From Thermodesulfobacterium commune DSM 2178 (GTDB taxonomy: Bacteria > Desulfobacterota > Thermodesulfobacteria > Thermodesulfobacteriales > Thermodesulfobacteriaceae), in NCBI RefSeq assembly GCF_000734015.1, contig NZ_CP008796.1, positions 1,050,001 to 1,082,000 of the forward strand: a stretch of DNA of 32,000 bases. Direction: 5' to 3'. The stretch's first letter is position 1. Every line of letters starts with the position of its first letter. Positions 1 to 28,464 of the stretch are shown here, in pieces. The notes under the pieces were generated by a model that ran no database searches, was not told the origin of the DNA, and saw only the letters and a list, made by a program, of their open reading frames with translations. Position numbers and translations under genes: made by a program.

Positions 1-576
1 TGTTTTAGCTGTGGTCCTGTTAAAAACCTTAACTGTATAGGAGATGGAGGAGCTGTAGTTACCAACGATGATGAATTAGCTTTTAAACTTAAGTTTCTAA
101 GGGTGCATGGACAGGTAGAAAAAAACCATTCTCATTTTTTTGGATTTAACTCAAGACTTGATGAACTTCAGGCTGTCATTCTTAATGCAAGACTTAAAAC
201 TTTAGACAAAAAAAATGAGAAAAGAAGAGAGATAGCTAAAAAATACCACGAAGGGCTTTCTGACCTTAAAAACCTTATTTTACCTCCCCTTGACCCCGAA
301 TACAAACAAAGTGTTTATCATAGGTATGTAATAAGAACTCCTTTTAGAGATGAGTTAGTCTCTTTTTTAAAAGAAAAAGGTGTAGGAACAGGGTATTATT
401 ATCCTATTCCTTTACACTTACATAAAAGTTATCAAATCACCTATCAGAAATCTTTTAGCCTTCCTGTAGCAGAAAGACTAGCCAAAGAATCACTTGCTAT
501 TCCTATGTATCCTGAGTTAACTGATGAAGAAATAGACTATGTTATAAGCTGTATAAGGGAATTTTTCCAGAAATAA
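1..576 (+). CDS. DegT/DnrJ/EryC1/StrS-family (ArnB-like) sugar aminotransferase, C-terminal part; 5' end lies outside the window
   Basis: Frame 1 is open from base 1 (CFSCGPVKNLNCIGDGGAVVTNDDELA..RVHGQ..GFNSRLDELQAVIL), matching the conserved C-terminal half of DegT-type PLP aminotransferases. Stop at 574-576. The ORF-track Met at 103 is internal. Confidence 0.85.
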   Translation, partial: CFSCGPVKNLNCIGDGGAVVTNDDELAFKLKFLRVHGQVEKNHSHFFGFNSRLDELQAVILNARLKTLDKKNEKRREIAKKYHEGLSDLKNLILPPLDPEYKQSVYHRYVIRTPFRDELVSFLKEKGVGTGYYYPIPLHLHKSYQITYQKSFSLPVAERLAKESLAIPMYPELTDEEIDYVISCIREFFQK

Positions 577-585
577 GGATAGCTT

Positions 586-1488: not shown

Positions 1489-1542
1489 AAACCTGGTAAA
1501 ATTGTCCTATCTAAATAGATTTTTAAGGGAGGGGTAAAAACA

Positions 1543-2781: not shown

Positions 2782-2787
2782 GATCTT

Positions 2788-3339
2788 ATGGAACGTCCAA
2801 GCTGGCATGAATATTTTATGCTTATAGCAAAGATGGTTGCACTAAGGTCCGGATGTAATTCCAGACCTACAGGCGCGGTGATAGTAAAAGACAAAAGAAT
2901 TTTAGCTACCGGATACAACGGCCCCATGCCTGGGGCTTGGCATTGTACAGATAAAGGACCTACCTATTGTTTTAGAAGAGAAAAGGGGATTCCAGACATA
3001 GATAAATATAATTTCTGTAGGGCTACTCATGCTGAGGCTAACGCGATCGCTCAGGCCGCAAGATTTGGAATTCCAGTAGAAGGAGCCAGTCTTTACTGTA
3101 CGCTTGCTCCTTGTTATGTTTGTCTAAAATTAATCGCCTCTGCTGGAATCAAAGAAGTCTACTATGAATATGACTACGAAAGCAGAGATTTTGAAAGGGA
3201 CCTTTTTTGGAAAGAGGCTATAAAGGAAGCAGGGATCAAAGTTTTTAAACAAATTGTGGTATCCGAAGAAACTATGAAAGCTCTTTCAACCATCCTACCC
3301 TACCCTACCTCTCAAAGAAGACTCCCTCCTACAGAATAA
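2788..3339 (+). CDS. Deoxycytidylate (dCMP)/cytidine deaminase family protein
   Basis: 183 aa with the zinc-deaminase motifs HAEANAI and PCYVCLKLI. SD GAGGT upstream. Confidence 0.85.
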   Translation: MERPSWHEYFMLIAKMVALRSGCNSRPTGAVIVKDKRILATGYNGPMPGAWHCTDKGPTYCFRREKGIPDIDKYNFCRATHAEANAIAQAARFGIPVEGASLYCTLAPCYVCLKLIASAGIKEVYYEYDYESRDFERDLFWKEAIKEAGIKVFKQIVVSEETMKALSTILPYPTSQRRLPPTE

Positions 3340-3443
3340 AGCTTTACTTTTTCAACTCTTTCTGTTGATTTTTGCCTTAAAAAGTCTTATTTTTTTGTAT
3401 AAAAAGAACTTTTTGTATAAAAAGGAAACCGGAGGGTAAGTTT

Positions 3444-4361
3444 ATGTCTAAGGATTATTATGAGATCCTTGGAGTTCCAAGAAATGCTACGCAAGAAGAG
3501 ATTAAAAAGGCCTATCGTAAACTGGCCATGAAATATCATCCTGACAGAAACAAAGGCAACAAAGAAGCAGAGGAAAAGTTTAAAGAAATAAACGAAGCCT
3601 ATGCAGTTTTGTCAGACCCTGAAAAAAGAAAGCTTTATGACCTTTATGGGTCAACAGAATTCCAGAGAAGATATACGCAAGAAGACATCTTTAGAGATTT
3701 CGATTTCGAGACCATCTTTAGAGATATAGGAATTGACTTAGGCGGATTTTTTAAGAAAAACAAGAGGGGAGGTAGAACATTTATTTTTGACTTAGGGGAC
3801 ATTTTTAGCAACCTCTTTGGAACCCACTTTGGAGGAGAAGAAGACTTTAGCCCATTTGGCGAGGTTTATGAAACCATACAATTAGACCTTCCTCTTACTA
3901 CCGATGAGATTATAAAAGGTGGGGAAAAAGAAGTTATTCTTCCAGGAACTTATGAAACCATAAAGATCAAAATACCTCAAAATGTAAAAGATGGACAAAT
4001 CCTTAGGGTAAAAAAGAAATCAGGGAAAACCACAAAGGAATATCTTTTTAGAGTAAAAATAATACCTTCTTCAGGCTATAAGGTTGAAGACAGTAACCTT
4101 ATCATAGAAAAAGAACTTCCTGTGAGCAGTTTTTTCTTGGGCGATGAGGTAGAAATCCAAACCCCTGAAGGAAGAAAGGTTAAAGCCAAAGTTCCACCTT
4201 TAACCAAACCTGGAGCTAAACTAAGACTCAAAGGGTTAGGCCTCCCCATCACTGGAGAAAAACGAGGGGATCTTTATGTGGTTTTAGTTCCTAAAATACC
4301 AAAAGCTCTTACTGAAGAGCAAAAAAAATTAATAGAAAAACTAAAAACCTTAGGGCTTTAA
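3444..4361 (+). CDS. J-domain co-chaperone without zinc finger (CbpA/DnaJ class II-like)
   Basis: 305 aa. It has an N-terminal J domain with HPD ([10 protein letters not shown]), a G/F-rich linker and a DnaJ C-terminal substrate-binding region. No CxxCxGxG repeats. SD GGAGGG upstream. Confidence 0.85.
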
Positions 4362-4368
4362 TTCTTTG

Positions 4369-4396
4369 TTGACAAACCTTTTAAAAGTTTTAAAAT
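4369..4396 (+). promoter_or_regulatory. Candidate sigma70-type promoter for the spermidine-synthase-like gene
   Basis: TTGACA (4369-4374), 16-nt spacer, TAAAAT (4391-4396), about 50 nt upstream of the ATG at 4445. Confidence 0.4.
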
Positions 4397-4444
4397 TTGG
4401 ATTAGCCATTAACTTCTCTAAAACATCCTTAAAAGGGGTTTCCT

Positions 4445-5353
4445 ATGGTCAAAGATATTATGAGTAAAGCCCTTCCCACTGAAACCAAAGGCGTAAGGGT
4501 ACTTTTTGGAGAATTTGTAAACATAGATTATCTTTATTCTTATTTAGGAACTATTATTTATGCTGAATCAGGGATGCAAAATATTTTTATTTTAGAAAAC
4601 AAGTTTTGGGGTAGGATGCTTTTTATTAACAACAACCTTCAGTTTACTTCAAGAGACGAGTTTATCTACCATGAATCTTTGGTACATATCCCTGTTCAAT
4701 CCACCCCTGAAGGTAGTATTAAGAAAGTTTTAATTTGTGGTGGAGGAGACTACGGGGCAGCAAGAGAACTTTTGAAATATCCAGAGATAGAAGAAGTGGT
4801 TATCGTAGACATAGACCCTAAAATACCTAAGTTAGTAGAAGAATACTTCCCTGAGCTTTTACCTGAAGATCCAAAGGACCCAAGGCTTAAACTGATAGTA
4901 GAAGATGCTTTTGTTATGGTGCAAAAATATTTAGATGAGGGGAAGGCCTTTGATTTGGTAATCATAGATTCTACAGACCCTGATATAAGTGACACAGGTA
5001 TTACGCAGGAGCTTTCTCATGCCCTGTTTGGAGTAAAATTTCATCAGATGCTTTATGAGCTTTGTCCTAAAGGAGTTGTTGTACAACAATGTGGGACTCC
5101 GTTTACGATGAAAAACATTTTTACAGAAACTTATAAAACCTTCATAAACGTTTATCCTGCAAAAGAGGTGTTTTGCTATAGAAGCAATGTACCATCCTTT
5201 GGTAGTGATAATGCTTTTATCATGAGATGCCCTTATCCTAACCCAGAAATTCCAAAATGGAAAGAATTACCAAATGTATACTTTTATTCTCATGAAATAC
5301 ATCGTTCAGCCTTTGGTCTTCCTAAATTTTGGAGGGAGGCCTTAGCGGTATGA
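4445..5353 (+). CDS. Spermidine synthase-like class I methyltransferase-fold protein
   Basis: 302 aa with aminopropyltransferase core motifs (VLICGGGDYGAARELLKY, VVIVDID, IIDSTDP). Confidence 0.7.
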   Translation: MVKDIMSKALPTETKGVRVLFGEFVNIDYLYSYLGTIIYAESGMQNIFILENKFWGRMLFINNNLQFTSRDEFIYHESLVHIPVQSTPEGSIKKVLICGGGDYGAARELLKYPEIEEVVIVDIDPKIPKLVEEYFPELLPEDPKDPRLKLIVEDAFVMVQKYLDEGKAFDLVIIDSTDPDISDTGITQELSHALFGVKFHQMLYELCPKGVVVQQCGTPFTMKNIFTETYKTFINVYPAKEVFCYRSNVPSFGSDNAFIMRCPYPNPEIPKWKELPNVYFYSHEIHRSAFGLPKFWREALAV

Positions 5354-6063
5354 AGGTCTTAGGGGTGTTAGGTTCGCCTCACAAAAACGGTGGGTCTGCT
5401 CAGCTTTTACTTGCTGCCTTAAAAGGGGCAGAAAGAGAAGGAGCTAAAACTGAGCTGGTCAGTGTTTACGACGGAGAAATAAAACCTTGTATAGGATGTA
5501 TCCATGACGAAGAGCCTAACTGTAAGTTTCCTTGCATATTTGAAGACTATGGAAAAATCATTTTAGAAAAAATCTATGAAGCAGACGGTATTATCTTTTC
5601 TACCCCGATTTATTGGTTTGCACCTTCTGGGCAGTTAAAAAACCTGATAGACCGCATGACTTGTCTTGAAAACATGGTCTCCTACGGAGAACCAAGTTAT
5701 CTCGAAGGAAAAGTAGTAGGTGCTATAGCTGTAGGGGCAGACGAAGGGGGAGCCTGGACAGGAGGTTATATCATTACTACCATGACCTCAATGGGGGCTA
5801 TCATTCCCCCCTGGGGTATTGCTTACTCACATAAGGCAGACAGAGCTATTTATGATGATAAAGCCTTGATGGATGCGATAAACATCGGTATCTTAACCAC
5901 AAGAACTATAGCAAGACTTAAAGGGATCCCTACAGATTTAACCTTTGTTTATAACAAAGATCTTCTTGAAAACATCAGAAAGGAAGTTATCGTAAGTTTA
6001 AATTTTATAAACACAGGAAAGGAAGGCTATGGAAAAAGACAAGCTAAAAGAAGCAGTATTTAA
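5350..6063 (+). CDS. Flavodoxin-like FMN reductase / iron-sulfur flavoprotein family
   Basis: The ATG at 5350 overlaps the upstream stop (ATGA) and follows GGAGGGAGG. MKVLGVLGSPHKNGG.. is the FMN-reductase fold, and there is a Cys cluster CIGC..C..PC. The ORF-track TTG at 5329 is less likely. Confidence 0.75.
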   Translation: MKVLGVLGSPHKNGGSAQLLLAALKGAEREGAKTELVSVYDGEIKPCIGCIHDEEPNCKFPCIFEDYGKIILEKIYEADGIIFSTPIYWFAPSGQLKNLIDRMTCLENMVSYGEPSYLEGKVVGAIAVGADEGGAWTGGYIITTMTSMGAIIPPWGIAYSHKADRAIYDDKALMDAINIGILTTRTIARLKGIPTDLTFVYNKDLLENIRKEVIVSLNFINTGKEGYGKRQAKRSSI

Positions 6064-6556
6064 GGCTATTTTTGATAGAAGAAGTATAAGAAAGTATTTA
6101 GACCAAAAACCTGACAAGAAATTAATTTATAAGCTGTTAGAAGCAGGTATATGGGCTCCTTCTGGGTTAAATAACCAACCTTGGAGGTTTGTAATAGTCT
6201 GGTCTGAAGAAATTAAACAAAAGCTGGCAGCCTTAACCAGATATCATGAAATCATCAAAAAGGCTCCGGTTTTAATTGGCGTGTTTTTAGATAAAGACAG
6301 GATGTACCACCAGATAAAAGACCATCAATCTGCAGGGGCTTGTATCCAAAACATCCTGCTTGCAGCTCATGCCTCTGGTCTTGGGGCCTGTTGGTTAGGT
6401 GAAATCTTAAAAAACGAAGAAAAAGTAAAAGAGGTCCTCTCCTTACCTAAGGAGAAATACGAACTTGCAGCTTTTATCGCTTTAGGATATCCAGATGATC
6501 AAAGTAAAAGGACCTCCAGACAACCTTTAGAAAACTTTATCATCAAAGAGATTTAA
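6029..6556 (+). CDS. Nitroreductase family protein (copy 1)
   Basis: 175 aa with RRSIRKY.., PSGLNNQPWRF, and a conserved C-terminal GYP. SD AGGAAAGGAAGG upstream. It overlaps the flavoprotein gene by 35 nt. Confidence 0.85.
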   Translation: MEKDKLKEAVFKAIFDRRSIRKYLDQKPDKKLIYKLLEAGIWAPSGLNNQPWRFVIVWSEEIKQKLAALTRYHEIIKKAPVLIGVFLDKDRMYHQIKDHQSAGACIQNILLAAHASGLGACWLGEILKNEEKVKEVLSLPKEKYELAAFIALGYPDDQSKRTSRQPLENFIIKEI

Positions 6557-6577
6557 AAGACTAAGCAGGGGGTTCTC

Positions 6578-7339
6578 ATGACCAAAAAATTCGTTCCCTT
6601 GATGTTAAGCTTGAGTTTTATTTTAGTAGGATGTAGTAAAGGATTAGGAGGTTCAGGCGGTTGTCCTACAGTAAAAGAATTCCAAAAAAAATTAGATAAC
6701 CTTCAGCCTGGAATTCAAATAGAAAAAATCGAAAAATCACCGATTCCAGGGTTATGTAAAGTAGTGATTAAAATATCGGAGTTTAATAAAGCTCTGTTTT
6801 ATACTGACGCAAAAGGAAATTACATCATAAGTGGGAACATCATTGACATAGCACAAAAAAAAGATATCATCAGAGAAGAGATGGAAAAATTAAACAAAAA
6901 AGTGCTTGATAAAAACACATTAGCAGAGGTAGAAAAGCTTGTTGACCTTACCTATGGCAACTCTCCTAACGTAGTATACTTTATTACTGACCCTGACTGT
7001 CCTGTCTGTAAACGTGCTGAACCTGTGTTAGAAAACCTGGCTAAAGAGGGGAAGATAACGGTCAAAACCATACTTTTACCCTTAGAGTCTTTACATCCCG
7101 AGGCCAAAAATAAATCTATATCTCTTATCTGTGATAAAAAAGGTTTTCAAGACCTTATCCAAGGATATAAAGGGGCTAACCTTTGTGCTTCAGGAAAAGA
7201 AAAAATAGAAAAAAACATAGATTTTATGTTTAACAAAATAGGAGTAACCGGGACCCCTGCTTTTATCTTCCCAGACGGAGAAGTTGTAATAGGTTGGGTA
7301 GGTCCGGAGTTTATTCTCAACAAGTTTAACTTGCGATAA
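6578..7339 (+). CDS. DsbC/DsbG-like thioredoxin-fold lipoprotein (copy 1)
   Basis: 253 aa with a lipoprotein signal ending in the lipobox LVGC and a CPVC redox motif in a thioredoxin-like C-terminal domain. Confidence 0.75.
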   Translation: MTKKFVPLMLSLSFILVGCSKGLGGSGGCPTVKEFQKKLDNLQPGIQIEKIEKSPIPGLCKVVIKISEFNKALFYTDAKGNYIISGNIIDIAQKKDIIREEMEKLNKKVLDKNTLAEVEKLVDLTYGNSPNVVYFITDPDCPVCKRAEPVLENLAKEGKITVKTILLPLESLHPEAKNKSISLICDKKGFQDLIQGYKGANLCASGKEKIEKNIDFMFNKIGVTGTPAFIFPDGEVVIGWVGPEFILNKFNLR

Positions 7340-7343
7340 AAAT

Positions 7344-7901
7344 ATGTTAACCGTTCAAGAAAAACTTTTTTGCTTAAAACTGGCAAGAAAAACCTTAGAA
7401 GACTATTTTAAAGGAACTTATGAACTAATTAACCCTCCAGACAAATACCCCTCTCTTAAACAAAAGAGAGGGGCTTTTGTGACCTTGCTTAAGGAAGGCA
7501 ATCTGAGAGGGTGTATCGGGATTATCGAACCTTTATACCCTCTCTATCAAGTAATCCAAGAAATGGCTATCTCTGCAGCCTTTAAAGACCCAAGGTTTCC
7601 ACCCCTTACAAAGGAGGAGCTTTCTCTTACAGAAATAGAAATTTCAGTTCTATCTCCTCTTAAAAAAGGAACTATAGAAGAGATAGAGGTAGGGAAACAC
7701 GGGGTATATTTAATCAAAGGCTTTTATCGAGGCGTACTCCTTCCTCAAGTACCTGTAGAGTATGGTTGGGACAAAAAGACCTTTTTAGAACACCTCTGTC
7801 TTAAAGCTGGCCTTCACCCTAACTGTTATAAGGAAAAAGACGTAGAAATCTATCTTTTTACGGCAGAGGTTTTTAAAGAAAGCGAATTTTTTAAAAACTA
7901 A
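7344..7901 (+). CDS. AMMECR1 domain protein (copy 1)
   Basis: 185 aa with the typical AMMECR1 signature (RGAFVTL..G.LRGCIG, DPRFPPL, LLPQV). Confidence 0.85.
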   Translation: MLTVQEKLFCLKLARKTLEDYFKGTYELINPPDKYPSLKQKRGAFVTLLKEGNLRGCIGIIEPLYPLYQVIQEMAISAAFKDPRFPPLTKEELSLTEIEISVLSPLKKGTIEEIEVGKHGVYLIKGFYRGVLLPQVPVEYGWDKKTFLEHLCLKAGLHPNCYKEKDVEIYLFTAEVFKESEFFKN

Positions 7902-8115
7902 TCAAGCCTTTTTGTCTATTCTAAATAGGCTTATCAACTGGTCCCTAATTTGCCGATAGAGAATAAAATCAAAAATCTTTCTTTAATCTTTAAACTTAAA
8001 AATCATAATCCTTAGTTACTTTCTATAGTTCTTCCCCAACTCTCATATAAAATCTATTCCATTCTCTACCTGTAACTACTCCTCTCAATCTTTTTCCCCT
8101 GATTCTAAACATATT

Positions 8116-8181
8116 TTTATAACAAAAGTCTTCTTGAAACCATCAGAAAAGAGGTTATCGCAAGTTTAAATTTTATAAACA
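8116..8181 (+). pseudogene. 66-nt fragment of a second, diverged copy of the flavoprotein gene 3' end
   Basis: It aligns to 5948-6013 with 6 mismatches and would encode ..YNKSLLETIRKEVIASLNFIN. Homology stops exactly where the MDH fragment begins. Confidence 0.8.
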
Positions 8182-8735
8182 TGGTGTATGTGGCTTACAA
8201 GGTGACGGGTTTCTCAAGGGAAAGGGTTATAGGAATGGCTGGGGTCCTTGATTCTGCTCGTTATCGGTATTTCATTGCAGAAGCCTTAGGGGTAAGCCCT
8301 GCTGATGTTTCTGCGCTTGTGCTTGGCATCCATGGCGACCATATGGTGCCCCTTGTGCGGCTTGCTAATGTCGCTGGGGTGCCCATAACTCAACTTCTTT
8401 CTCAAGAAAAGGTCGAAGAAATAGTAAAAAGGACGAAGTATGGAGGGGGCGAGATCGTAAGCCTTCTTAAGACTGGTAGCGCCTTTATCACCCCAGGGTT
8501 AGCCACGATTGAGATGGCTGAATCTATACTTAAAGATGCAAAAAGGGTGTTGACTTGTTCAGTGCTTTTGAAAGGTGAATACGGCATTTCTGGCGTCTTT
8601 CTTGGCGTCCCTGTTATCCTTGGAAGGCAAGGAGTAGAAAGGATCCTTGAGTTTGACCTTCTACCAGAAGAGAGTGAAGCTTTGTTAGCCGGAGCCAAAG
8701 TCTGCGAAGCCTTAATCTCTCAGCTTGAACTGTAG
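8181..8735 (+). pseudogene. mdh: 5'-truncated LDH-like malate dehydrogenase (C-terminal ~184 codons only)
   Basis: VYVAYKVTGFSRERVIGMAGVLDSARYRYFIAEALGVS..GIHGDHMVPL.. matches the catalytic/C-terminal domain of MDH. The NAD-binding N-terminal ~125 aa are absent. The ATG sits at the junction and has no SD. A sample line (8281-8340) is about 57% GC. Confidence 0.8.
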
Positions 8736-8871
8736 AAGTTTTAGGCAGATTTAGTAGATTGGGGCTAATTTAGATGAAATGTTGCTCAATGCGCTTGGTA
8801 GATAAAATGAGCATCTAAGCATAGAATAGCAGAAGTTAAAATTTAAGATAAATATATTGTCTAATATATTA

Positions 8872-8896
8872 TTAAGGCCTTAAATTAAGGCCTTAA
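8872..8896. promoter_or_regulatory. Operator-like pair of 12-bp perfect palindromes TTAAGGCCTTAA (unit 1)
   Basis: TTAAGGCCTTAA at 8872-8883 and 8885-8896, 13-bp period, ending 22 nt upstream of the duplicated ATG at 8919. The sequence is certain. The function is inferred. Confidence 0.35.
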
Positions 8897-8918
8897 ATGA
8901 AATATCAAATTTTAATGT

Positions 8919-9008
8919 ATGAACATTGAAAATTCTAACAACAAACTGAAAGAAAAATTAAATAGCTTTCTTGATTATCATAAAACTCTTTTTATAATAT
9001 ATTATTAA
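8919..9008 (+). other. 29-codon ORF created by the tandem duplication (first 25 codons identical to the helicase gene)
   Basis: MNIENSNNKLKEKLNSFLDYHKTLF then IIYY-stop. The stop (9006-9008) lies inside the first palindrome of unit 2. Confidence 0.3.
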
Positions 9009-9029
9009 GGCCTTAAATTAAGGCCTTAA
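9005..9029. promoter_or_regulatory. Operator-like pair of 12-bp perfect palindromes TTAAGGCCTTAA (unit 2)
   Basis: Palindromes at 9005-9016 and 9018-9029, ending 22 nt upstream of the helicase ATG (9052). No SD lies between them and the ATG. Confidence 0.35.
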
Positions 9030-9051
9030 ATGAAATATCAAATTTTAATGT

Positions 9052-12000
9052 ATGAACATTGAAAATTCTAACAACAAACTGAAAGAAAAATTAAATAGCT
9101 TTCTTGATTATCATAAAACTCTTTTTAATCTTAAACGTAAGATTATAAAAAAACTTGAAGATTATGATGAAGTTATTTGGCTATATGAAATTCCTAATGA
9201 GAAGGAATGTTTTTGTATTTTAAATGCCAGTGATGATGTTGATGAAACAATTTTAGAGGTTTATTTACCTGATGAACCAGAAAAACCTATTATTCCACAT
9301 GAAATAAATAAATATGTTGTATTTGACAAAAATGAAGAACCAAAACTGAATGAAACTCTATTGCTGCAGCTACTGCAACAAAACGAAATAACCAACGAGG
9401 ATTTACTTCAAATTAAAGAAATCTTTGAAAAGTATGAAAAAAAGTATATTGAATGGCTTATAGAACACGAACGTTGGAGGAAAATTTATAAAGTTTATGA
9501 AAAACTTTATAAGATGTACTTTGAACTAAAACGAAATGAAGCAGCTTATGAACTTGTACTTGGCTGTGGTTTATTATTATGGCGTCAACCAAATTGTCAA
9601 ATCATTCAACGTCATATATTAACCGCTAGATGTGTTATAGAGTTTGAGAAGGACAAAAAAGAAATCAAGGTTCTATTTGATGAAAATAATCCAAAAGTAA
9701 ACTTAGAAGATGAAATGATTGATTTAGAGTATCGACCTTCTGGGATTATAGAAAGTAAAAAAGCACTACTCGAAGATTCTTCAGTATTTGATTTATTTTT
9801 AACGACAGAAAACAATTCTAATAATATTATTTCCTTTTTAAAAGCATTTGTAAATACATTACATCCACAAGGTAAATACGAACATATTAATCAACCGGAT
9901 CTAAAAAACATAAATGATATACCAAGAATCGAGTTTGCTCCAGCAATAATTTTGAGAAAACGGACTGAACCATACCTAAAGTGGTTAAATGACCTCTCAA
10001 AATTGGAAATTAAAGAGATTTCGCCTTTAATTTTAGAAATAGCCGAAATAAAAAAGGAAGATGAAGAATTTTATGATACAAATAAAAGCACCTTAATAGA
10101 TTATAGACTATATTTTCCCAAACCTTACAATGAGGAACAGAAAAAAATTATTGAAAGATTAAACTTTTCGAACTTAGTAGTAATACAAGGACCACCAGGA
10201 ACCGGTAAATCGCATACAATTGCTAACTTAATAGCTCATTTGTTAGCCGAAGGCAAAAGAGTGTTAGTAACTGCAAAAACAAGTAGGGCGTTGGCAGTTT
10301 TAAAAAATCTAATTCCTGAAAAACTAAGAGAGTTTTGTATTTTTCTTTTCGGTGATTCCAGTTTTGAAGAAAAAGAACATCTCGAGCATAGTGTGAAATC
10401 GTTATTATACAATTTGCGAAATTTGGATTCTGAAAGACTTGAAAATAACATTAAAGAACTAGAAGAAGAATTAGAAAAAATCAAATGTAAAAAAAGAGAA
10501 TTAACGCATCAAATTCTAATGTTAGTAAACTTAGAAAAAGAAGATTATAAGGAAATAGGAATCTATAAAGGCAGTAGAGCTGACTTAGCCCTACAATTTG
10601 AAGAAGATAAAGAAAAATTTGTTTGGTTTGAAGATAATATCCATTGTGATAAAAATTGGCCAGATGAATTAAATAACGTTAATTGGGATAAACTGATAAA
10701 TAGTTTGAACTATTTTAAATCATATAGTCAAAAAGAATTTATAGGTAAACAGTTAGAAAACTTAATAAAGGATCTAAAACAAATTTTTGTTTTGATACCT
10801 CTTACTCAGATAGAAAACTTATTAGAAAAAGAGACAAAAATTGTTGATCAACTAAACCGCTTTGAAAAAATCACTATTAAATTTATAAACAAAAACACTT
10901 CTGATTATTTCGATCTTGATTTTTTAAATGAGTCTATAACTTTTTTCAAAAATTTTAAAGAAAAACTAAATGAAATCGGAGTAGAGTTACCTTGGGTAAA
11001 AGATTTGTGCAGATCTATTTTAGAAAATGAAGAATTAATGAAAAGAAAAATAGATAAAATAAAATCAATAAAAGAAGAGGTTCTTAATTGGCAGTGTGTA
11101 TTGCCAAAACAGAAAAATGAACCTATAGATGTTGAAGAGATCATTAATGACATAGAAATCTTATTGCATTATTTACAAAGTGGCGGAAAACTAGGTTTTT
11201 GGATTTTTAGACCTAGTATAGTAAAAGAAAGAGAATATTTAATAAAAAATTGTTATATTGACGGAAAAAAATGTAGCACTATTGATGACTTAAGAAGATT
11301 GAATCTTTATTTAAAAACAATGAATGAATTGAAAAGACTTTATGGCGATTGGGAAAAATATTTTGAAGACACATCAACTACAACTCTGAAAGAAAAATAT
11401 AAAATTCTAAAAGAAAAGATCTTAGATCCAGCAGAGCAAATTATGAAAGATAAAGATCTACTTTTAAAGTGTAGACTTTATCAAAAGAAACTAGGTATTA
11501 CAGACCCCACCGTTTTCTTTGATCCTGACAAGATTGTTCAGCTTATTGATGAATTAAATTATTACAAATTACAAACTGAATTAGTGGACATTCAGCAAAA
11601 GATAAACCTATTAATAGAAGAATTAAAAAATATAAATACTAGTTGCTATGATTTGCCACGTCTACTTAAATACTTAGAAGAAAGAAGAGTTGACGAACTA
11701 TTAAATGCTATTTATAAAATAAAAGAAGAAAAAGAAAAAATATTACTAATTGAAAAAAATTTAGAAATTTTAAAAAAACATCTTCCAAATTTAATTGATA
11801 ATATTTTTTTAAATCCAAATTATGAATATTGGGCTCCTAAAATTAAAGTATTAAACAGGGCTTGGGATTTTGCGAGATTAAAATCTTTTCTTCATGAAAT
11901 TACATCTGAAAATGATTTTGAACAATTAAATAAGCAGCTTTCTCAACTTGAAAATGAGGAAAGAAAAATTATTGCAGACATAATTGCATTAAAAACATGG

Positions 12001-13482
12001 TATTTCTTATCAAAAAAAATTGATAAAGAAACTAAAAAGCATTTAGTTGCATGGGAACAGGCTATTAAAAAAATCGGTAGAGGTAAAGGAAAATATGTTA
12101 ATAAATATATGAAAGATGCACAATCACATTTAGAAGAAGTAATATACTCCTTTCCAATTTGGATAATGCCTATTTATAAAATTTATTACACATTTGAAAT
12201 CAAAAATTTCTTGTGGTTTGATGTTCTGATTATTGACGAAGCTTCACAATGCAGTATATTAGAAGGATTTCCCTTATTTCAATTAGCGGCTAAGGTTGTA
12301 ATAGTTGGAGATGATAAACAGATTTCACCAGAAGCTATCGGTATCGAAAAATCCAAGATTTTTCAATTACAAAGAGAATATTTGTATGACTTTGACTTTA
12401 AAGATACCTTTGATTTGGAAAGTAGTATTTTTGATTTGGGGAAAAGAATATCTCCTGATGATATTATCACTTTAAAAGAACATTTTAGATGTATGCCAGA
12501 AATTATAGAATTTTGTAATCGCTATTTTTATAATGGCTTTTTAGTTCCTTTAAAAGTTTTTTCACTGGATAGACTCAATCCTTTAGAAAAAATATATGTT
12601 TCTAATGCATATTGTAAAGGTAGCGGAAGCAATGTAATTAATCCAATAGAAGCGGAAGCCATTGTGGAAAAAATAATTGAAATATGTTCAGATGAAAGAT
12701 ATAAAGGTAAAACAATAGGAGTAATAAGCCTTTTAGGAGATGAGCAGGCAAAATACATAGAAACCTTAATAATGCAAAAACTTGACCACAAAGAAATTTT
12801 GGAAAGACAACTTTTATGTGGTAATCCTTACTCATTTCAAGGGGATGAAAGGGACATAATCTTCCTATCCTTGGTTATTGCTCCGATTAATGAAGATGGA
12901 ACTAAAAGACACATAGGAGTTTTAAACAAAGTTCAAGATGAAAGGAGATTTAATGTCGCTGTAAGTAGAGCAAAGGAACAAATATGGTTATTTCATTCGG
13001 TAAAAATTGAAGATTTATCCCGTGAAGATTTAAGGAGAAAGTTATTAGAGTATTTTTATACTCCACACAAATTTGAAATTGAAGGAATAGATTTAAATGA
13101 ATTAAGAAAAATCGCTATCTCAGCTAATAGATATTTTGAAAAACCTCCCTCTCCTTTTGAAAGTTGGTTTGAGGTTGATGTTGCACTGGAAATTCTTACA
13201 TTAGGGTTTGAAGTTAAACCTCAGTTTAAAGTTGGACCATATCGCATTGATTTAGTCACTTTTGATAAATTGAATACTCTTAATAGACTTGCAATAGAAT
13301 GTGATGGAGATAAATATCATGGAATAGAACATATAGAACGAGATATTAACAGACAAAAAATCTTGGAAAGATGCGGTTGGAAATTTTTCAGAATCAGAGC
13401 TTCTGAATTTTACTTTGATAAACACAAAGTATTAGAAAAACTAAAATCTACATTAGAAAGTTTGAATATTTATCCCAGATAA
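9052..13482 (+). CDS. Large SF1 (Upf1/DNA2-like, AAA_11/AAA_12-type) helicase fused to a C-terminal DUF559/Vsr-like PD-(D/E)xK nuclease fold; candidate defence protein
   Basis: Uninterrupted 1476-aa ORF. Helicase motifs: Walker A GPPGTGKS (aa 380-387), motif II DEASQ (1062-1066), GDDKQISP (1086-1093), HFRCMPEII (1144-), QGDERD (1263-), NVAVSRAK (1301-). C-terminal nuclease fold: YRIDLV..IECDGDKYH..RD..R..L..GWKFFRI. A sample line (9061-9120) is about 22% GC. Confidence 0.9.
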   Translation: MNIENSNNKLKEKLNSFLDYHKTLFNLKRKIIKKLEDYDEVIWLYEIPNEKECFCILNASDDVDETILEVYLPDEPEKPIIPHEINKYVVFDKNEEPKLNETLLLQLLQQNEITNEDLLQIKEIFEKYEKKYIEWLIEHERWRKIYKVYEKLYKMYFELKRNEAAYELVLGCGLLLWRQPNCQIIQRHILTARCVIEFEKDKKEIKVLFDENNPKVNLEDEMIDLEYRPSGIIESKKALLEDSSVFDLFLTTENNSNNIISFLKAFVNTLHPQGKYEHINQPDLKNINDIPRIEFAPAIILRKRTEPYLKWLNDLSKLEIKEISPLILEIAEIKKEDEEFYDTNKSTLIDYRLYFPKPYNEEQKKIIERLNFSNLVVIQGPPGTGKSHTIANLIAHLLAEGKRVLVTAKTSRALAVLKNLIPEKLREFCIFLFGDSSFEEKEHLEHSVKSLLYNLRNLDSERLENNIKELEEELEKIKCKKRELTHQILMLVNLEKEDYKEIGIYKGSRADLALQFEEDKEKFVWFEDNIHCDKNWPDELNNVNWDKLINSLNYFKSYSQKEFIGKQLENLIKDLKQIFVLIPLTQIENLLEKETKIVDQLNRFEKITIKFINKNTSDYFDLDFLNESITFFKNFKEKLNEIGVELPWVKDLCRSILENEELMKRKIDKIKSIKEEVLNWQCVLPKQKNEPIDVEEIINDIEILLHYLQSGGKLGFWIFRPSIVKEREYLIKNCYIDGKKCSTIDDLRRLNLYLKTMNELKRLYGDWEKYFEDTSTTTLKEKYKILKEKILDPAEQIMKDKDLLLKCRLYQKKLGITDPTVFFDPDKIVQLIDELNYYKLQTELVDIQQKINLLIEELKNINTSCYDLPRLLKYLEERRVDELLNAIYKIKEEKEKILLIEKNLEILKKHLPNLIDNIFLNPNYEYWAPKIKVLNRAWDFARLKSFLHEITSENDFEQLNKQLSQLENEERKIIADIIALKTWYFLSKKIDKETKKHLVAWEQAIKKIGRGKGKYVNKYMKDAQSHLEEVIYSFPIWIMPIYKIYYTFEIKNFLWFDVLIIDEASQCSILEGFPLFQLAAKVVIVGDDKQISPEAIGIEKSKIFQLQREYLYDFDFKDTFDLESSIFDLGKRISPDDIITLKEHFRCMPEIIEFCNRYFYNGFLVPLKVFSLDRLNPLEKIYVSNAYCKGSGSNVINPIEAEAIVEKIIEICSDERYKGKTIGVISLLGDEQAKYIETLIMQKLDHKEILERQLLCGNPYSFQGDERDIIFLSLVIAPINEDGTKRHIGVLNKVQDERRFNVAVSRAKEQIWLFHSVKIEDLSREDLRRKLLEYFYTPHKFEIEGIDLNELRKIAISANRYFEKPPSPFESWFEVDVALEILTLGFEVKPQFKVGPYRIDLVTFDKLNTLNRLAIECDGDKYHGIEHIERDINRQKILERCGWKFFRIRASEFYFDKHKVLEKLKSTLESLNIYPR

Positions 13483-13682
13483 GTTTTTTTTGTAGATTAA
13501 ATTTTTTATCAAATCTTCCGATTGTCAGCAAAATGAAAGGTAGTGTCTCATTAACTATAAAGACTTGAGAGGGCAGAGAGGCCATGGTAGCTTCCTCAAA
13601 AACGACACCAAATCACTAAAAAAGAAGGGAAGGTACCATGAAAAGAACAGACTAATTATTTCAAAAATAGACAAAGAAGGCT

Positions 13683-14210
13683 ATGGAAAAAGACAGGTTA
13701 AAAGAAGCGGTGTTTAAGGCTATTTTTGATAGAAGGAGCATAAGAAGGTATTTAGAACAAAAGCCTAACAAGGAGTTAATCTATCGATTGTTAGAAGCTG
13801 GTATATGGGCTCCTTCTGGGTTAAACAACCAACCTTGGAGGTTTGTAATAGTCTGGTCTGAAGAAATTAAACAAAAGCTGGCAGCCTTAACCAGATATCA
13901 TGAAATCATCAAAAAGGCTCCGGTTTTAATTGGCGTGTTTTTAGATAAAGACAGGATGTACCACCAGATAAAAGACCATCAATCTGCAGGGGCTTGTATC
14001 CAAAACATCCTGCTTGCAGCTCATGCCTCTGGTCTTGGGGCCTGTTGGTTAGGTGAAATCTTAAAAAACGAAGAAAAAGTAAAAGAGGTCCTCTCCTTAC
14101 CTAAGGAGAAATACGAACTTGCAGCTTTTATCGCTTTAGGATATCCAGATGATCAAAGTAAAAGGACCTCCAGACAACCTTTAGAAAACTTTATCATCAA
14201 AGAGATTTAA
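13683..14210 (+). CDS. Nitroreductase family protein (copy 2)
   Basis: 175 aa. It differs from copy 1 at 6 of the first 35 residues (K5R, K22R, D25E, D29N, K31E, K35R) and is identical afterwards. Confidence 0.85.
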   Translation: MEKDRLKEAVFKAIFDRRSIRRYLEQKPNKELIYRLLEAGIWAPSGLNNQPWRFVIVWSEEIKQKLAALTRYHEIIKKAPVLIGVFLDKDRMYHQIKDHQSAGACIQNILLAAHASGLGACWLGEILKNEEKVKEVLSLPKEKYELAAFIALGYPDDQSKRTSRQPLENFIIKEI

Positions 14211-14231
14211 AAGACTAAGCAGGGGGTTCTC

Positions 14232-14993
14232 ATGACCAAAAAATTCGTTCCCTTGATGTTAAGCTTGAGTTTTATTTTAGTAGGATGTAGTAAAGGATTA
14301 GGAGGTTCAGGCGGTTGTCCTACAGTAAAAGAATTCCAAAAAAAATTAGATAACCTTCAGCCTGGAATTCAAATAGAAAAAATCGAAAAATCACCGATTC
14401 CAGGGTTATGTAAAGTAGTGATTAAAATATCGGAGTTTAATAAAGCTCTGTTTTATACTGACGCAAAAGGAAATTACATCATAAGTGGGAACATCATTGA
14501 CATAGCACAAAAAAAAGATATCATCAGAGAAGAGATGGAAAAATTAAACAAAAAAGTGCTTGATAAAAACACATTAGCAGAGGTAGAAAAGCTTGTTGAC
14601 CTTACCTATGGCAACTCTCCTAACGTAGTATACTTTATTACTGACCCTGACTGTCCTGTCTGTAAACGTGCTGAACCTGTGTTAGAAAACCTGGCTAAAG
14701 AGGGGAAGATAACGGTCAAAACCATACTTTTACCCTTAGAGTCTTTACATCCCGAGGCCAAAAATAAATCTATATCTCTTATCTGTGATAAAAAAGGTTT
14801 TCAAGACCTTATCCAAGGATATAAAGGGGCTAACCTTTGTGCTTCAGGAAAAGAAAAAATAGAAAAAAACATAGATTTTATGTTTAACAAAATAGGAGTA
14901 ACCGGGACCCCTGCTTTTATCTTCCCAGACGGAGAAGTTGTAATAGGTTGGGTAGGTCCGGAGTTTATTCTCAACAAGTTTAACTTGCGATAA
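14232..14993 (+). CDS. DsbC/DsbG-like thioredoxin-fold lipoprotein (copy 2)
   Basis: The 253-aa translation is identical to copy 1. Confidence 0.75.
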   Translation: MTKKFVPLMLSLSFILVGCSKGLGGSGGCPTVKEFQKKLDNLQPGIQIEKIEKSPIPGLCKVVIKISEFNKALFYTDAKGNYIISGNIIDIAQKKDIIREEMEKLNKKVLDKNTLAEVEKLVDLTYGNSPNVVYFITDPDCPVCKRAEPVLENLAKEGKITVKTILLPLESLHPEAKNKSISLICDKKGFQDLIQGYKGANLCASGKEKIEKNIDFMFNKIGVTGTPAFIFPDGEVVIGWVGPEFILNKFNLR

Positions 14994-14997
14994 AAAT

Positions 14998-15555
14998 ATG
15001 TTAACCGTTCAAGAAAAACTTTTTTGCTTAAAACTGGCAAGAAAAACCTTAGAAGACTATTTTAAAGGAACTTATGAACTAATTAACCCTCCAGACAAAT
15101 ACCCCTCTCTTAAACAAAAGAGAGGGGCTTTTGTGACCTTGCTTAAGGAAGGCAATCTGAGAGGGTGTATCGGGATTATCGAACCTTTATACCCTCTCTA
15201 TCAAGTAATCCAAGAAATGGCTATCTCTGCAGCCTTTAAAGACCCAAGGTTTCCACCCCTTACAAAGGAGGAGCTTTCTCTTACAGAAATAGAAATTTCA
15301 GTTCTATCTCCTCTTAAAAAAGGAACTATAGAAGAGATAGAGGTAGGGAAACACGGGGTATATTTAATCAAAGGCTTTTATCGAGGCGTACTCCTTCCTC
15401 AAGTACCTGTAGAGTATGGTTGGGACAAAAAGACCTTTTTAGAACACCTCTGTCTTAAAGCTGGCCTTCACCCTAACTGTTATAAGGAAAAAGACGTAGA
15501 AATCTATCTTTTTACGGCAGAGGTTTTTAAAGAAAGCGAATTTTTTAAAAACTAA
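14998..15555 (+). CDS. AMMECR1 domain protein (copy 2)
   Basis: The 185-aa translation is identical to copy 1. Confidence 0.85.
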   Translation: MLTVQEKLFCLKLARKTLEDYFKGTYELINPPDKYPSLKQKRGAFVTLLKEGNLRGCIGIIEPLYPLYQVIQEMAISAAFKDPRFPPLTKEELSLTEIEISVLSPLKKGTIEEIEVGKHGVYLIKGFYRGVLLPQVPVEYGWDKKTFLEHLCLKAGLHPNCYKEKDVEIYLFTAEVFKESEFFKN

Positions 15556-15597
15556 TCAAGCCTTTCTGTCTCCTCTAAAGAGGCTTATCAACTGGCT

Positions 15598-15917
15598 CAG
15601 GTTGTTGCAAAGGTTATTTTTTCCTTTACCTATTTATTGATGGCTATAGGACAACCTCCGTTATTCAGGATTGACCGTACAGGAGCAGCTATCATAGGTG
15701 CCTCTCTTATGGTAATCTCTGGGAGTCTATCTGTATATGAAGCTTATGAAGCCATAGATTATAAAACCATTTTTAATCCTCTTTGGGATGAGGATCTTGA
15801 TCGCTAACCTGAGGTTGTCTGGATTTTTTAACCTTGTGTTATCGTGTTATCCTTTTTAGCCCAAAGAGTACAAAACCCCTCAAAACTACTTTACCTTTTG
15901 ATTTTTACTTCAGGCAT
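15598..15917 (+). pseudogene. ArsB/NhaD-YbiR-type anion permease, N-terminal fragment with at least two frameshifts
   Basis: Three consecutive frames read AQVVAKVIFSFTYLLMAIGQP..IDRTGAAIIGASLMVISG..AIDYKTIF / LILFGMRILIANLRLSGFF / LSFLAQRVQNPSKLLYLLIFTSG. Premature stops at 15805 and 15857. No in-frame start codon. Confidence 0.7.
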
Positions 15918-17257
15918 GTGGGAGTAGAATATAAATTGTGTCTTTTAATAAAATATTTTAGAGGCATAATAAAAATTTTTAATATTTTTTAAATTAATGA
16001 TAACATAAAACCTAAAAGACTAAACTAACCAGGAGGTCTGTAAAATGGAAAACTTAGACTTAGATTTAGAAAAAGTTTTAAGTGAAATCTCAAAAATTGA
16101 ATCAAAAGAGGGTATCAAAATGGCTGCTGCACTCCTCTTAAACGCTCTCATGAAAAAAGAAAGAGAAATATTCCTTAGAGATAGTATTGATAATAAAGCT
16201 AATGGTTACTATGAAAGACAACTTGCCTGTTTCTTAGGTAACCTTGGTATCTCTGTCCCAAGAGATAGAAAATCTGAATTCAGACCTGCTATTCTTCCTC
16301 CTGAATGGCAAAAAGCTGATGAATCCTTCCAGGACTTTATCCTTAACCTCGTTCTCCAAAGCTACTCCCCCAATAAAATCAAAGCCCTCTTGCAATCTAT
16401 GAAACTCCCCTACTCCCCAGAACAAATAGAAGAAATTAAAGAAGAATTGTATAACCAAGCCAAAGAATTAAAAACCAAAGAATTGCCAGAAAATTTGTTT
16501 GCTATGTTTATAGACGCTTATCATACTCAGATAAAAGATACCGAAGCCAACAGAATCAGAAAAGCAGTTATTTATAATATCATCGGGATAGATATGGAGG
16601 GAAGAAAAAATTTACTTTCTTATTACATTTATTTTGGTTCAGAGACGAAGGAGGACTGGCTCCAGATACTTAATGATTTGATAAAGAGGGGAGTTAAGAG
16701 GGTTATGGTAATAGTGAGTGATGATTTTCCTGGCCTTACTCAAGCCATAAAAGCCCTCTTTCCTGAGACAGATCATCAGCTTTGTTTTGTACACATGCAA
16801 AGGAACATCAACAGGAACATGTCTAAGCAGGATGCTAAAAAATTTTATGAGGAGTTAAGCATTATAAAGAGGATAGAGGAGTATGAGAGGGCCTTAAATA
16901 GATTTGAGGAATTATGTAAGAGTTATGAGAAGAAGTATCCAGCTTATATAAAGGGACTTTTGAAAAAGAAGGAGCATTATTTTGTTTATAAGAAATATCC
17001 TGAGGGGGTGAGGAGGTATATATACACGACGAATGTGGTTGAGAATATAAATAGCAGGATAGAGCTGATAAGGGTAAATACAGGGGGATATTTTCAATCA
17101 ATCAAGACAGCAGAGGTTGCGATATACATAACAGTAAGTCGGATTCAGAAAACGAGATGGCAAAAACCACTTCCTTTAATTAAGTCTGCTTTATACGAAT
17201 TGAGGCAAATGTTTGTAAAGAGATTTTATAAGGAGACACAATTCTCTTGACAAGTGT
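15918..17257 (+). mobile_element. IS256-family insertion sequence (ends approximate, +/-20 bp)
   Basis: About 1.34 kb around a Mutator-type transposase gene. Inverted AATTGTGTC at 15934-15942 and 17235-17243 with imperfect inward extension, at the same distance from the end as in IS256. The outermost ~15 nt do not match each other. Confidence 0.75.
16045..17250 (+). CDS. IS256/Mutator-family DDE transposase
   Basis: 401 aa with family-typical blocks (FIDAYHTQIKD, VSDDFPGL..AI..FP....Q.CFVHMQRN, TTNVVENINSRI). SD AGGAGG upstream. Confidence 0.9.
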   Translation: MENLDLDLEKVLSEISKIESKEGIKMAAALLLNALMKKEREIFLRDSIDNKANGYYERQLACFLGNLGISVPRDRKSEFRPAILPPEWQKADESFQDFILNLVLQSYSPNKIKALLQSMKLPYSPEQIEEIKEELYNQAKELKTKELPENLFAMFIDAYHTQIKDTEANRIRKAVIYNIIGIDMEGRKNLLSYYIYFGSETKEDWLQILNDLIKRGVKRVMVIVSDDFPGLTQAIKALFPETDHQLCFVHMQRNINRNMSKQDAKKFYEELSIIKRIEEYERALNRFEELCKSYEKKYPAYIKGLLKKKEHYFVYKKYPEGVRRYIYTTNVVENINSRIELIRVNTGGYFQSIKTAEVAIYITVSRIQKTRWQKPLPLIKSALYELRQMFVKRFYKETQFS

Positions 17258-17992
17258 CCAAAACATCATAATTGGGGCTGCTTCAGGCATATCTTACAAG
17301 TAAATTCTTTTTTCTTTTTTCATCTATTTCCAGTAGCTTTTATCTGTGCTGGGGTAATCCACAGGTTTTACAAAAAAGATTTAACCTCATCAGTAAAAAC
17401 CCCCGAAGAAGCCTTAAAATATAGATACAATAAGCCTTCGGTCATTAAATCTTCTTTGGTAGTCCTAATCACAGTAATTCTTTTCTTTTTAAACGTACCT
17501 ATGGAAATTGTTTCTATAGGTGTAGGGTCATTTCTGTTGATTACCAGAAGGGTTAAGCCTGAAAAGGTGTATAACCTGATAGACTTTAGACTTTTAATCC
17601 TTTTTATAGGGCTTTTTATCGTCATAAAAGGGGTTGAAAAATCTGTAGTTTTTTATAGTTTGGTAGAACATTTTCAGATGTTAGTAACGGCCCCTCTATC
17701 TTTGGTATTTTCTTCTCTCTTAGTTTCTAACGTTGTAAGCAACGTTCCTGCAGTTTTGATCTTTAAACCTCTTATAGTTAATTACTTTAATGACGAAAAA
17801 GCCTGGTTTTTCTTAGCGATGTCCTCGACTTTTGCAGGGAATTTAACCATCCTTGGGTCTATCGCTAACATCATCGTCATCGAAGGAGCCTCTCCAAAAG
17901 TAAAGATTGGCTTTTTTGAATACCTAAAAATCGGTCTTCCGGTAACCCTACTCTCCGTTTTAGTTGGACTTGTGATTTTAAGTTTATTTTAA
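17258..17992 (+). pseudogene. Same permease, C-terminal fragment (one more frameshift near 17295-17310)
   Basis: QNIIIGAASGISY (17259-17297) is the permease (G)NPQN-type motif region and runs into a stop at 17301. The next frame reads FFFFHLFPVAFICAGV.. through the ORF-track 17456-17992 product (..SNVVSNVPAVL..AGNLTILGSIANIIVIE..). Confidence 0.7.
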
Positions 17993-28438: not shown

Positions 28439-28464
28439 AACATAAAAATTGCAGGAGGGTGTTA
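28439..28464. repeat. Right copy of the 26-bp imperfect direct repeat
   Basis: It contains the SD (GGAGGG) of the SPFH gene and ends on the A of its ATG. Confidence 0.85.

Follow-up and report, generated by a model that had tools for sequence, protein, structure and literature searches.

A 32,000-nt stretch of the Thermodesulfobacterium commune DSM 2178 genome (contig NZ_CP008796.1, positions 1,050,001 to 1,082,000; hereafter the window) carries a block of three genes, encoding a nitroreductase, a DsbC-like lipoprotein, and AMMECR1, in two copies, and between these copies lies DNA derived from two other taxa, including the gene for a large helicase–nuclease. The explanation that we favor, with a probability of roughly 0.6, is that a foreign composite segment of 5.9 kb (7912–13826) entered the flavoprotein–nitroreductase–dsbC–AMMECR1 locus (here called the X locus) by homologous insertion-duplication, followed by gap repair or gene conversion. 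The composite segment probably resides in the T. commune chromosome.

The two copies in the window were compared ungapped, base by base, at an offset of 7,654 nt, a spacing that a repeat scan recovered independently, together with one of 2,168 nt. An earlier, sequence-only inspection of this DNA (the original prediction) had described the pair as a mosaic of diverged, identical, and again diverged sequence, and every one of its figures was reproduced. Six of 66 positions differ between 5948–6013 and 8116–8181. The first 144 nt of the nitroreductase open reading frame (ORF) hold 19 differences (22 within 6015–6172), with the last left-side difference at 6172/13826; the 1,739 nt that follow (6173–7911 = 13827–15565) hold none; and four of the 30 nt in 7912–7941 differ (7912, 7918, 7919, and 7926) before similarity stops at 7941/15595. 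The probability that 26 randomly placed differences in 1,927 nt would all spare some 1,739-nt block is about 2e-25, so the differences are not evenly spread and the switch is as sharp as predicted. Pfam also bears out the gene calls for the flavoprotein, the nitroreductase, the DsbC-like lipoprotein, and AMMECR1. Two details required adjustment. The short flavoprotein piece does recur, but its homology begins at 8117 (= 5949) and not at 8116, as 8108–8116 belongs to a flank derived from an insertion sequence (IS); and the "permease" described as the right-hand context of copy 2 is indeed native, but consists of a truncated CitMHS fragment (17456–17992) with an IS256-family element in between. 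The content of the DNA between the copies—a 3′ fragment of mdh, a 133-nt tandem duplication, and the 1,476-aa helicase–nuclease gene—had gone unmentioned.

The unoccupied state of the locus is well represented among relatives. Exact-protein look-ups with the flavoprotein and the copy 1 nitroreductase (nitroreductase A) recovered more than 20 contigs from hot-spring metagenomes and metagenome-assembled genomes (MAGs), 99–100% identical to the window, in which the locus occurs once, without the insert, in the order speE–flavoprotein–nitroreductase–dsbC–AMMECR1–flank 2–CitMHS–dnaJ. Because these contigs align colinearly with window positions 1–7941 and then with 15596–15919, flank 2 is the native right flank and 7942–13826 is additional DNA. 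Comparison with genomes lacking the insert, which the original prediction had proposed as a check, thus finds the single-copy locus unoccupied within the same species.

One source of the additional DNA is of T. hveragerdense type. The genome of T. hveragerdense DSM 12571 (L030), the closest species-representative genome, is colinear with window 1–8116 at 92.8% identity, and itself contains neither the duplication nor the insert. At all 33–34 sites that distinguish the copies (about 30 in 8117–8181 plus 13667–13826, and four in 7912–7941), the element side carries the T. hveragerdense allele, with 0 mismatches; 7912–8181 and 13667–13826 are 100% identical to this genome. The left edge of copy 1 (A-left, 6014–6172), by comparison, matches native single-copy contigs at every position and departs from copy 2 at 22 of 158. 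In both copies the core is of T. commune type, with T. hveragerdense differing at 110 of 1,739 sites and native contigs at 2–7. The left allele switch falls between 6172 and 6196 (a 23-nt interval, 6173–6195; 13826–13850 in copy 2, where T. hveragerdense alleles give way to T. commune ones), and the right switch, from T. commune to T. hveragerdense alleles, between 7793 and 7912. Flank 1, the sequence that follows copy 1, has no homology to the native T. commune flank. In L030 the same sequence leads directly into a minus-strand gene for an IS1380-family transposase, at its C-terminal end (transpos_IS1380, E = 6.4e-5); the 175 nt of flank 1 thus represent the outer end of an IS resident at that position in T. 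hveragerdense.

Short tracts of T. hveragerdense alleles also pepper ordinary T. commune-type contigs (6538–6730 in L001 and L005; 1017–1746 in L002; 6871–6925 in L019). Where natural T. commune-type contigs (L001–L010 and L019–L021, across window 1–7941) differ from DSM 2178-type sequence, they mostly do so in such clustered tracts, a pattern in the alignments that would imply frequent exchange of short tracts between the species along the entire locus, beyond the element itself.

The second source is a Caldimicrobium-type chromosome. Over 5,354 nt, the fragment at 8180–13666 is 100.000% identical to ileS–lspA–TPR–pabB–leuB–mdh–helicase–TPR loci on other contigs (L063–L066), the sole difference being that these loci have a single 133-nt unit. 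The fragment begins within mdh, the remaining 184 aa matching the C-terminal portion of the 307-aa malate dehydrogenase P0001 (MDH) at 100% identity, and ends 184 nt past the helicase stop codon in non-coding DNA, as would be expected of a random chromosomal piece. The flanks of the donor loci share 70–77% identity with a syntenic T. commune-type locus, leuB–uvrC, from which both mdh and the helicase gene are absent, and the proteins of the donor loci cluster with MAG proteins named Caldimicrobium. Since the adjacency of mdh and helicase is kept in diverged relatives (86–98% helicase identity), the Caldimicrobium-type locus is the home of the helicase gene. The cargo is not a second copy of an mdh–helicase locus belonging to T. 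commune, which reads leuB–uvrC without both genes. Nor did it originate in T. hveragerdense, given the 70–77% identity of the donor flanks to T. commune and the clustering of the donor proteins with Caldimicrobium. A query for the reciprocal 5′ fragment of mdh, using the N-terminal 123 aa of MDH, gave two irrelevant matches, the word-index search being uninformative here.

Three joints connect these pieces. At J1 (8116|8117), the IS end abuts the flavoprotein gene at position 5949, with a TTT microhomology; J2 (~8181; 8179–8182) links 6013 to the middle of mdh, with a shared CA; and J3 (13666|13667) links the region downstream of the helicase to 6013/6014, with no microhomology. The T. hveragerdense sequence breaks off at 6013 and is taken up again at 6013/6014, so that J2 and J3 form the two ends of one clean insertion, and J1 is read as the head-to-tail closure of segment 5949–8116. 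The position of J1 raises the question of transposition. IS1380/ISEcp1 elements mobilize adjacent DNA, flank 1 derives from the end of an IS1380-family element that lies distal to the transposase, and the duplicated T. hveragerdense-type block exactly abuts that end; an ISEcp1-like (IS1380-family) element might thus have mobilized nitroreductase–dsbC–AMMECR1, with J1 as the transposition joint. We consider this quite improbable: just 175 nt of the IS are present, the transposase is absent, J1 is internal to the IS and not at a terminus, and no target-site duplication is identifiable. A scan of the joints (5949/8117, 8181, and 13667) for an IS terminus weakly refutes it as well, the best match being 10 of 16 in the wrong register, with approximately 0.1–0.5 such matches expected by chance.

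More generally, the 7,654-nt unit lacks the features of a mobile element. The ORF and Pfam scan of the unit found no replication, integrase, or transposase gene; partition, transfer, and phage structural genes and an att site were likewise not found in it, nor was a tRNA or an Rfam match. Its only intact genes are the helicase–nuclease and the three duplicated housekeeping genes, and it does not qualify as a plasmid, an integrative element, or a prophage. Scans for promoters and terminators, tRNAs, and Rfam families yielded nothing bearing on mechanism beyond promoter-like hexamers at the 133-nt duplication.

The flanks are disposed as Campbell-type integration would leave them: copy 1 has a native left and a donor right side, and copy 2 a donor left and a native right side. 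The original prediction had proposed this topology, with foreign DNA in between and a homeologous donor, and in these respects it stands, the donor being T. hveragerdense-type; but a single crossover is insufficient. A lone Campbell crossover predicts hybrid copies that differ on both sides and not an identical core, so gap repair or conversion is needed as well. Gene conversion and Campbell integration, offered initially as alternatives, are instead both required, because both copies are recipient-type over 6196–7793. The suddenness with which divergence gives way to identity, and the variation of tract ends among lineages, are marks of gene conversion. The two possible routes are a gapped "ends-in" donor repaired from the chromosome, and a conversion tract of at least 1.6 kb after integration.

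The duplication, the identity of the donors, the three joints, the single-copy state of relatives, and the strain-specific mosaic boundaries are direct observations; the following order of events, along with a circular or ends-in intermediate, is what we infer. First, a random 5.35-kb Caldimicrobium-like fragment, extending from the middle of mdh through the helicase–nuclease gene, would have inserted into a T. hveragerdense-type X locus at 6013/6014, precise to within 1 nt, by illegitimate end joining (J2 and J3, with 0–2 nt of microhomology). Second, the T. hveragerdense-type segment 5949–8116, now with its insert, would have been closed head-to-tail at J1 (8116|5949, TTT microhomology), either by tandem duplication in a T. 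hveragerdense-type strain or by circularization of an imported fragment. Third, this construct may have recombined with the 93%-identical T. commune X locus in the Campbell or ends-in manner: with the ends of donor homology facing one another, RecA-type recombination would insert the whole segment and thereby duplicate nitroreductase–dsbC–AMMECR1. Fourth, the interior of the homology would have been filled or converted from the resident chromosome, confining donor alleles to the outer 160 nt and 30 nt that border the heterologous DNA, so that both copies would become T. commune-type and identical over 1,739 nt. Parsimony suggests a path of transfer from Caldimicrobium to a T. hveragerdense-type strain and on to T. 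commune, with J1–J2 passing back into Caldimicrobium; uptake by natural transformation is assumed.

Each of the processes invoked—illegitimate joining, homeologous recombination, merodiploid formation, and gene conversion—is known, and the locus represents a new and well-resolved instance of them. Campbell or ends-in insertion-duplication is familiar from single crossovers of suicide vectors and from double-strand gap repair of linearized plasmids. The window shares with these the heterologous DNA between direct repeats, the native outer contexts, and, as in gap repair, the recipient alleles inside both copies; it differs in that chromosomal pieces of two other taxa, naturally patched together, serve as the "vector," the homeology is ~93%, and the intermediate is reconstructed. 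In the merodiploids that arise on transformation of Streptococcus pneumoniae, a donor fragment bridges two sister chromosomes and generates tandem duplications. There, as here, a single event with a hybrid donor would yield a tandem duplication whose new joint contains foreign DNA, but the present duplication is small (2 kb), the joint holds 5.9 kb of foreign DNA, and competence in Thermodesulfobacterium is only assumed. Homology-facilitated illegitimate recombination, known from Acinetobacter and pneumococcus, combines a homologous anchor on one side with a microhomology joint on the other; this is compatible with J1–J3 as well as with J1–J2 in Caldimicrobium. Finally, gene conversion between direct repeats or paralogs underlies concerted evolution, as in the duplicated tuf and rRNA genes. 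The likeness lies in the fall from ~13% divergence to 0% over 1.7 kb, the strain-variable boundaries, and the patchy donor alleles; the difference is that a recent interspecies difference has been erased here, whereas old paralogs are maintained there.

The joints could also be read as a single copying path, since the piece ends at 6013, copy 2 resumes at 6013/6014, and the microhomologies are 0–3 nt. In such a scenario, one in-place replication accident in a T. hveragerdense-type ancestor, involving serial template switching of the kind termed MMBIR or FoSTeS, would have taken the fork to 8116, back to 5949 for 65 nt, through 5.35 kb of foreign or ectopic DNA from mdh onward, and home at 6014, the outer parts being overwritten afterwards with T. 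commune-type DNA by ordinary recombination. Short-tract replacement by alleles of the other species is common at this locus, which would ease the last step. We nonetheless hold this to be improbable. The 5.35-kb template comes from a different genus and would need to be free DNA in the cell; T. hveragerdense DSM 12571 lacks the duplication and the insert; and native flanks on both sides would demand more later recombination events than integration does.

Parts of the element recur in other assemblies. The copy 2 form of the nitroreductase (nitroreductase B) occurs on one other contig only, L011, from an isolate draft (GCA_000746435.1). This 7,578-nt contig runs helicase–B-left–core–flank 1–J1–J2–mdh′ with 0 mismatches to the window along that path, B-left being the left edge of copy 2 and mdh′ the mdh fragment; it is an exact circular permutation of the unit, and its ends overlap by 57 nt, both inside the 133-nt repeat. 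The 7.65-kb circular DNA suggested in the original prediction accordingly has a counterpart in L011, but it is not plasmid-like, being a patchwork of chromosomal fragments from two organisms. J1 and J2 are present also in two JGI metagenome contigs (L070 and L071) and in one from an oil-facility metagenome (L075); L070, which reaches far enough, carries J3 too (helicase–J3–core–flank 1–J1–J2–mdh′). The mosaic boundaries differ among these contigs. L070 switches at 6021|6042 and 7926|7942, and L075 at 7919|7926. Within this group of contigs the T. hveragerdense tracts have shrunk to 6014–6021 and 7942 onward, or persist as patches, which in L071 lie at 6871 and 7436–7437. With the pervasive short tracts in ordinary contigs, tract ends that differ among strains show that homeologous exchange and conversion are active at the locus.

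These recurrences bear on the concern that the element might be an assembly or contamination chimera, with T. hveragerdense-like or Caldimicrobium reads stitched into the T. commune chromosome. Its foreign parts are 100% identical to the genomes of other organisms, and the duplication is seen in no other contig. But the same three joints and mosaic appear base for base in L011; the element occurs in three other metagenome samples (L070, L071, and L075) with different mosaic boundaries and an extra IS256; the left switch interval, at 23 nt, is too short for a graph join at k ≥ 31; and a contaminant would have brought its own core, different at 110 sites, and not a T. commune-type one. A chimera is very unlikely.

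Several observations count against integration by insertion-duplication. L011 and L070 join B-left or J3, via the core, to flank 1, an adjacency that the window does not contain and that would be expected of a circle, of at least two tandem units, or of a mis-resolved repeat. J1–J2 is also fused, without J3, to the native Caldimicrobium-type right flank (L067–69, L072–74, and L090), along a path that runs J1–J2–mdh′–helicase into that flank and a defense island. Six Logan contigs (L067–69 and L072–74; also L090) begin exactly 30 nt before J1, the mark of a k = 31 assembly graph forking at intact copies of the IS. The presence of J1–J2 in a Caldimicrobium context would call for an extra transfer step, that is, back-transfer. 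No independent contig joins A-left–core to flank 1 or B-left–core to flank 2, and the integrated single-unit arrangement is observed only in the window. The exact identity over ~430 nt to the Icelandic type strain is striking, and it is based on one reference genome. An exact scan for J1 in JGI metagenome contigs gave 0 matches, L070 and L071, which carry J1, evidently lying outside that collection; and the X-locus contig of draft GCA_000746435.1 was not among the matches listed in the exact look-ups with nitroreductase A and the flavoprotein. The integrated arrangement is favored by two facts about the assemblies: the identical helicase protein is recorded, under the name T. commune, on a 1,764,045-bp contig, and the DSM 2178 genome was Sanger-finished with 2–3, 4–5, and 8–10 kb clone libraries and verification of repeats.

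An alternative that speaks directly to the L011 and L070 contigs is that the unit exists, mainly or additionally, as a free 7.5-kb circle or as a tandem array of at least two units, the window being the integrated state or a finishing decision. Such a circle would consist solely of captured pieces of chromosome, with no replicase, and its homology to both hosts would let it enter the Thermodesulfobacterium X locus or the Caldimicrobium mdh–helicase locus by homologous recombination. We think this unlikely, but it has several points in its favor: L011 crosses B-left–core–flank 1 unbroken, with ends overlapping by 57 nt; L070 crosses helicase–J3–core–flank 1–J1–J2–mdh′; the J1–J2 joint is found in a Caldimicrobium-type context as well; and long direct repeats, such as the 1.74-kb pair, are good substrates for pop-out and amplification. 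On the other hand, genes for replication, partition, or an integrase are absent from the unit. The break in L011 lies inside the 133-nt tandem repeat, and a graph cycle arising from the window's arrangement would give the same contig. The identical helicase protein sits on a 1.76-Mb contig of an assembly finished with 4–10 kb mate pairs. Campbell entry into Caldimicrobium, moreover, would leave an intact mdh beside J2, and L067 has no branch at J2. Under insertion-duplication itself, the 1.74-kb direct repeats should allow RecA to excise a 7,654-nt circle, or the unit to be amplified in tandem, and either outcome would explain the circular-looking contigs elsewhere.

More speculative, and doubtful in our view, is the notion that the unit is a "shuttle" circle with neither recombinase nor replicase of its own, ferrying a defense-type helicase–nuclease between genera by means of host RecA. 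With ~2 kb of Thermodesulfobacterium and 5.35 kb of Caldimicrobium homology, it might enter either chromosome and pop out through its own repeats; the occurrence of J1–J2 in chromosomal contexts of both genera, and the circular adjacency in two assemblies, are compatible with this.

The helicase–nuclease gene has a GC content of 0.25–0.31, against ~0.37 locally. The C-terminal 420 aa of the protein align with the families PDC-S37 (E = 6.6e-71), ProA (1.1e-71), and Hhe (4.7e-45), while the N-terminal 350 aa gave no match. These single-protein antiphage candidates (PADLOC, NCBIfam) share with the window protein a C-terminal SF1 helicase core and Vsr-like nuclease; its scores, however, lie far below the full-length cut-offs of the families (ProA, 241.9 bits against 1500; Hhe, 153.6 against 2000). 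It resembles, and may be regarded as, a candidate antiphage (defense-like) helicase–nuclease. In the Logan contig L090 (SRR23823827), the helicase gene is followed at 6706–15263 by genes for an SSO2105_N protein, an ApeA_NTD1/HEPN_Apea protein, a PDDEXK_1 protein, and a DUF2357/PDDEXK_7 protein. This defense-island-like run is absent from contigs with an intact mdh (L087–L089), which continue instead with beta-lactamase, HSP33, and pyrD.

The perfect 133-nt tandem duplication covers the region upstream of the helicase and its first 76 nt (8862–8994 = 8995–9127). Native Caldimicrobium-type loci all carry one unit, without the tandem duplication. Its junction (8994/8995) creates a near-consensus TTGATT-16-TATAAT at 8971–8998, ~54 nt upstream of the helicase ATG (9052), and the duplication leaves a 29-codon decoy ORF beginning at 8919. 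The duplication could represent a promoter-creating adaptation of an imported gene to its new host. A palindrome-containing motif, TTAAGGCCTTAAAT, stands in two adjacent copies directly upstream of the helicase start (8874–8901 and 9007–9034), doubled again by the 133-nt duplication; the motif looks like a possible operator.

If integration by insertion-duplication is correct, the window preserves an unusually complete natural record of a gene crossing a genus boundary without mobile-element machinery, comprising both donors at 100% identity in public data, three illegitimate joints, the empty site, and sister-strain conversion tracts. It indicates that lineages of T. commune type and of T. 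hveragerdense type often recombine homeologously in hot-spring populations, and that a candidate antiphage gene can become fixed in a new host via a merodiploid intermediate. There is also a practical consequence: the T. commune reference contains a 1.74-kb perfect repeat pair that will collapse, or emerge as a false "plasmid," in short-read assemblies.

Features of the duplicated locus and its surroundings, in window coordinates.
Feature	Position	Strand	Details
Spermidine synthase (speE)	4445–5353		Pfam
FMN_red flavoprotein (FMN-reductase-type)	5350–6063	+	Pfam
Flavoprotein gene 3′ end, native	5949–6013	+	T. hveragerdense-type copy recurs at 8117–8181
A-left (copy 1 left edge)	6014–6172	+	Nitroreductase start; T. 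commune-type
Nitroreductase	6029–6556 and 13683–14210	+	Pfam
Copy 1 identical core	6173–7911	+	T. commune-type
DsbC_N/thioredoxin lipoprotein	6578–7339 and 14232–14993	+	Pfam
AMMECR1	7344–7901 and 14998–15555	+	Pfam
Copy 1 right edge	7912–7941	+	4/4 diagnostic sites are T. hveragerdense alleles
Flank 1	7942–8116	+	175 nt; 100% identical to sequence after AMMECR1 in T. hveragerdense DSM 12571; non-coding in the window
Flavoprotein 3′ fragment, T. hveragerdense-type	8117–8181	+	65 nt; 0 differences from L030
Caldimicrobium-type chromosomal fragment	8180–13666	+	5,354 nt plus one extra 133-nt unit
mdh′	8181–8735	+	C-terminal 184 aa of 307-aa malate dehydrogenase; Ldh_1_C only; gene fragment
Perfect tandem duplication	8862–9127	+	133-nt unit; helicase upstream region and first 76 nt
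Helicase–nuclease	9052–13482	+	1,476 aa; SF1 helicase (AAA_11/AAA_12) and C-terminal MTES_1575/DUF559 (Vsr-like) nuclease
B-left (copy 2 left edge)	13667–13826	+	Nitroreductase start; 100% T. hveragerdense-type
Copy 2 identical core	13827–15565	+	Rest of nitroreductase, DsbC-like, AMMECR1
Flank 2, native T. commune right flank	15566–15919	+	Colinear with single-copy relatives
IS256-family insertion sequence	15920–17257	+	Transposase 16045–17250; outside the duplication

To the right of the duplication, the IS256-family element takes the place of 154 nt of native sequence beside the truncated CitMHS gene, with no visible target duplication. The identical 1,338-nt element is very active in these populations and appears in several unrelated contexts (the window, L070–L072, L075, and L022–L029). 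It is found between mdh′ and the helicase at 8833/8834 in L070, L071, and L075, and inside the helicase at 9809 in L072; on the contigs themselves, it lies at 1036–1160 of L075, at 1591–1618 of L072, and at the ends of L070 and L071. The window, like most T. commune-type contigs, retains a CitMHS gene for only the C-terminal 163–178 aa, so the truncation of this gene is older than the IS256 insertion; in the divergent L007 it encodes 322 aa (8706–9674). Contig ends at or shortly after AMMECR1 are shared by many independent assemblies, and contigs of ~15–16 kb all begin near rpsL (L009, L010, L019–L021, and the ends of L030); the recurrent break downstream of AMMECR1 is consistent with polymorphism of IS or of the element there in natural populations. 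Farther along the window, two adjacent ORFs of near-equal size (27687–28445, 252 aa; 28449–29210, 253 aa) are accompanied by a 31-nt repeat at a spacing of 762 and 87% identity (27672–27702 and 28434–28464), which suggests a tandem pair of paralogs; the ORF list also places antisense ORFs across 27580–29210.

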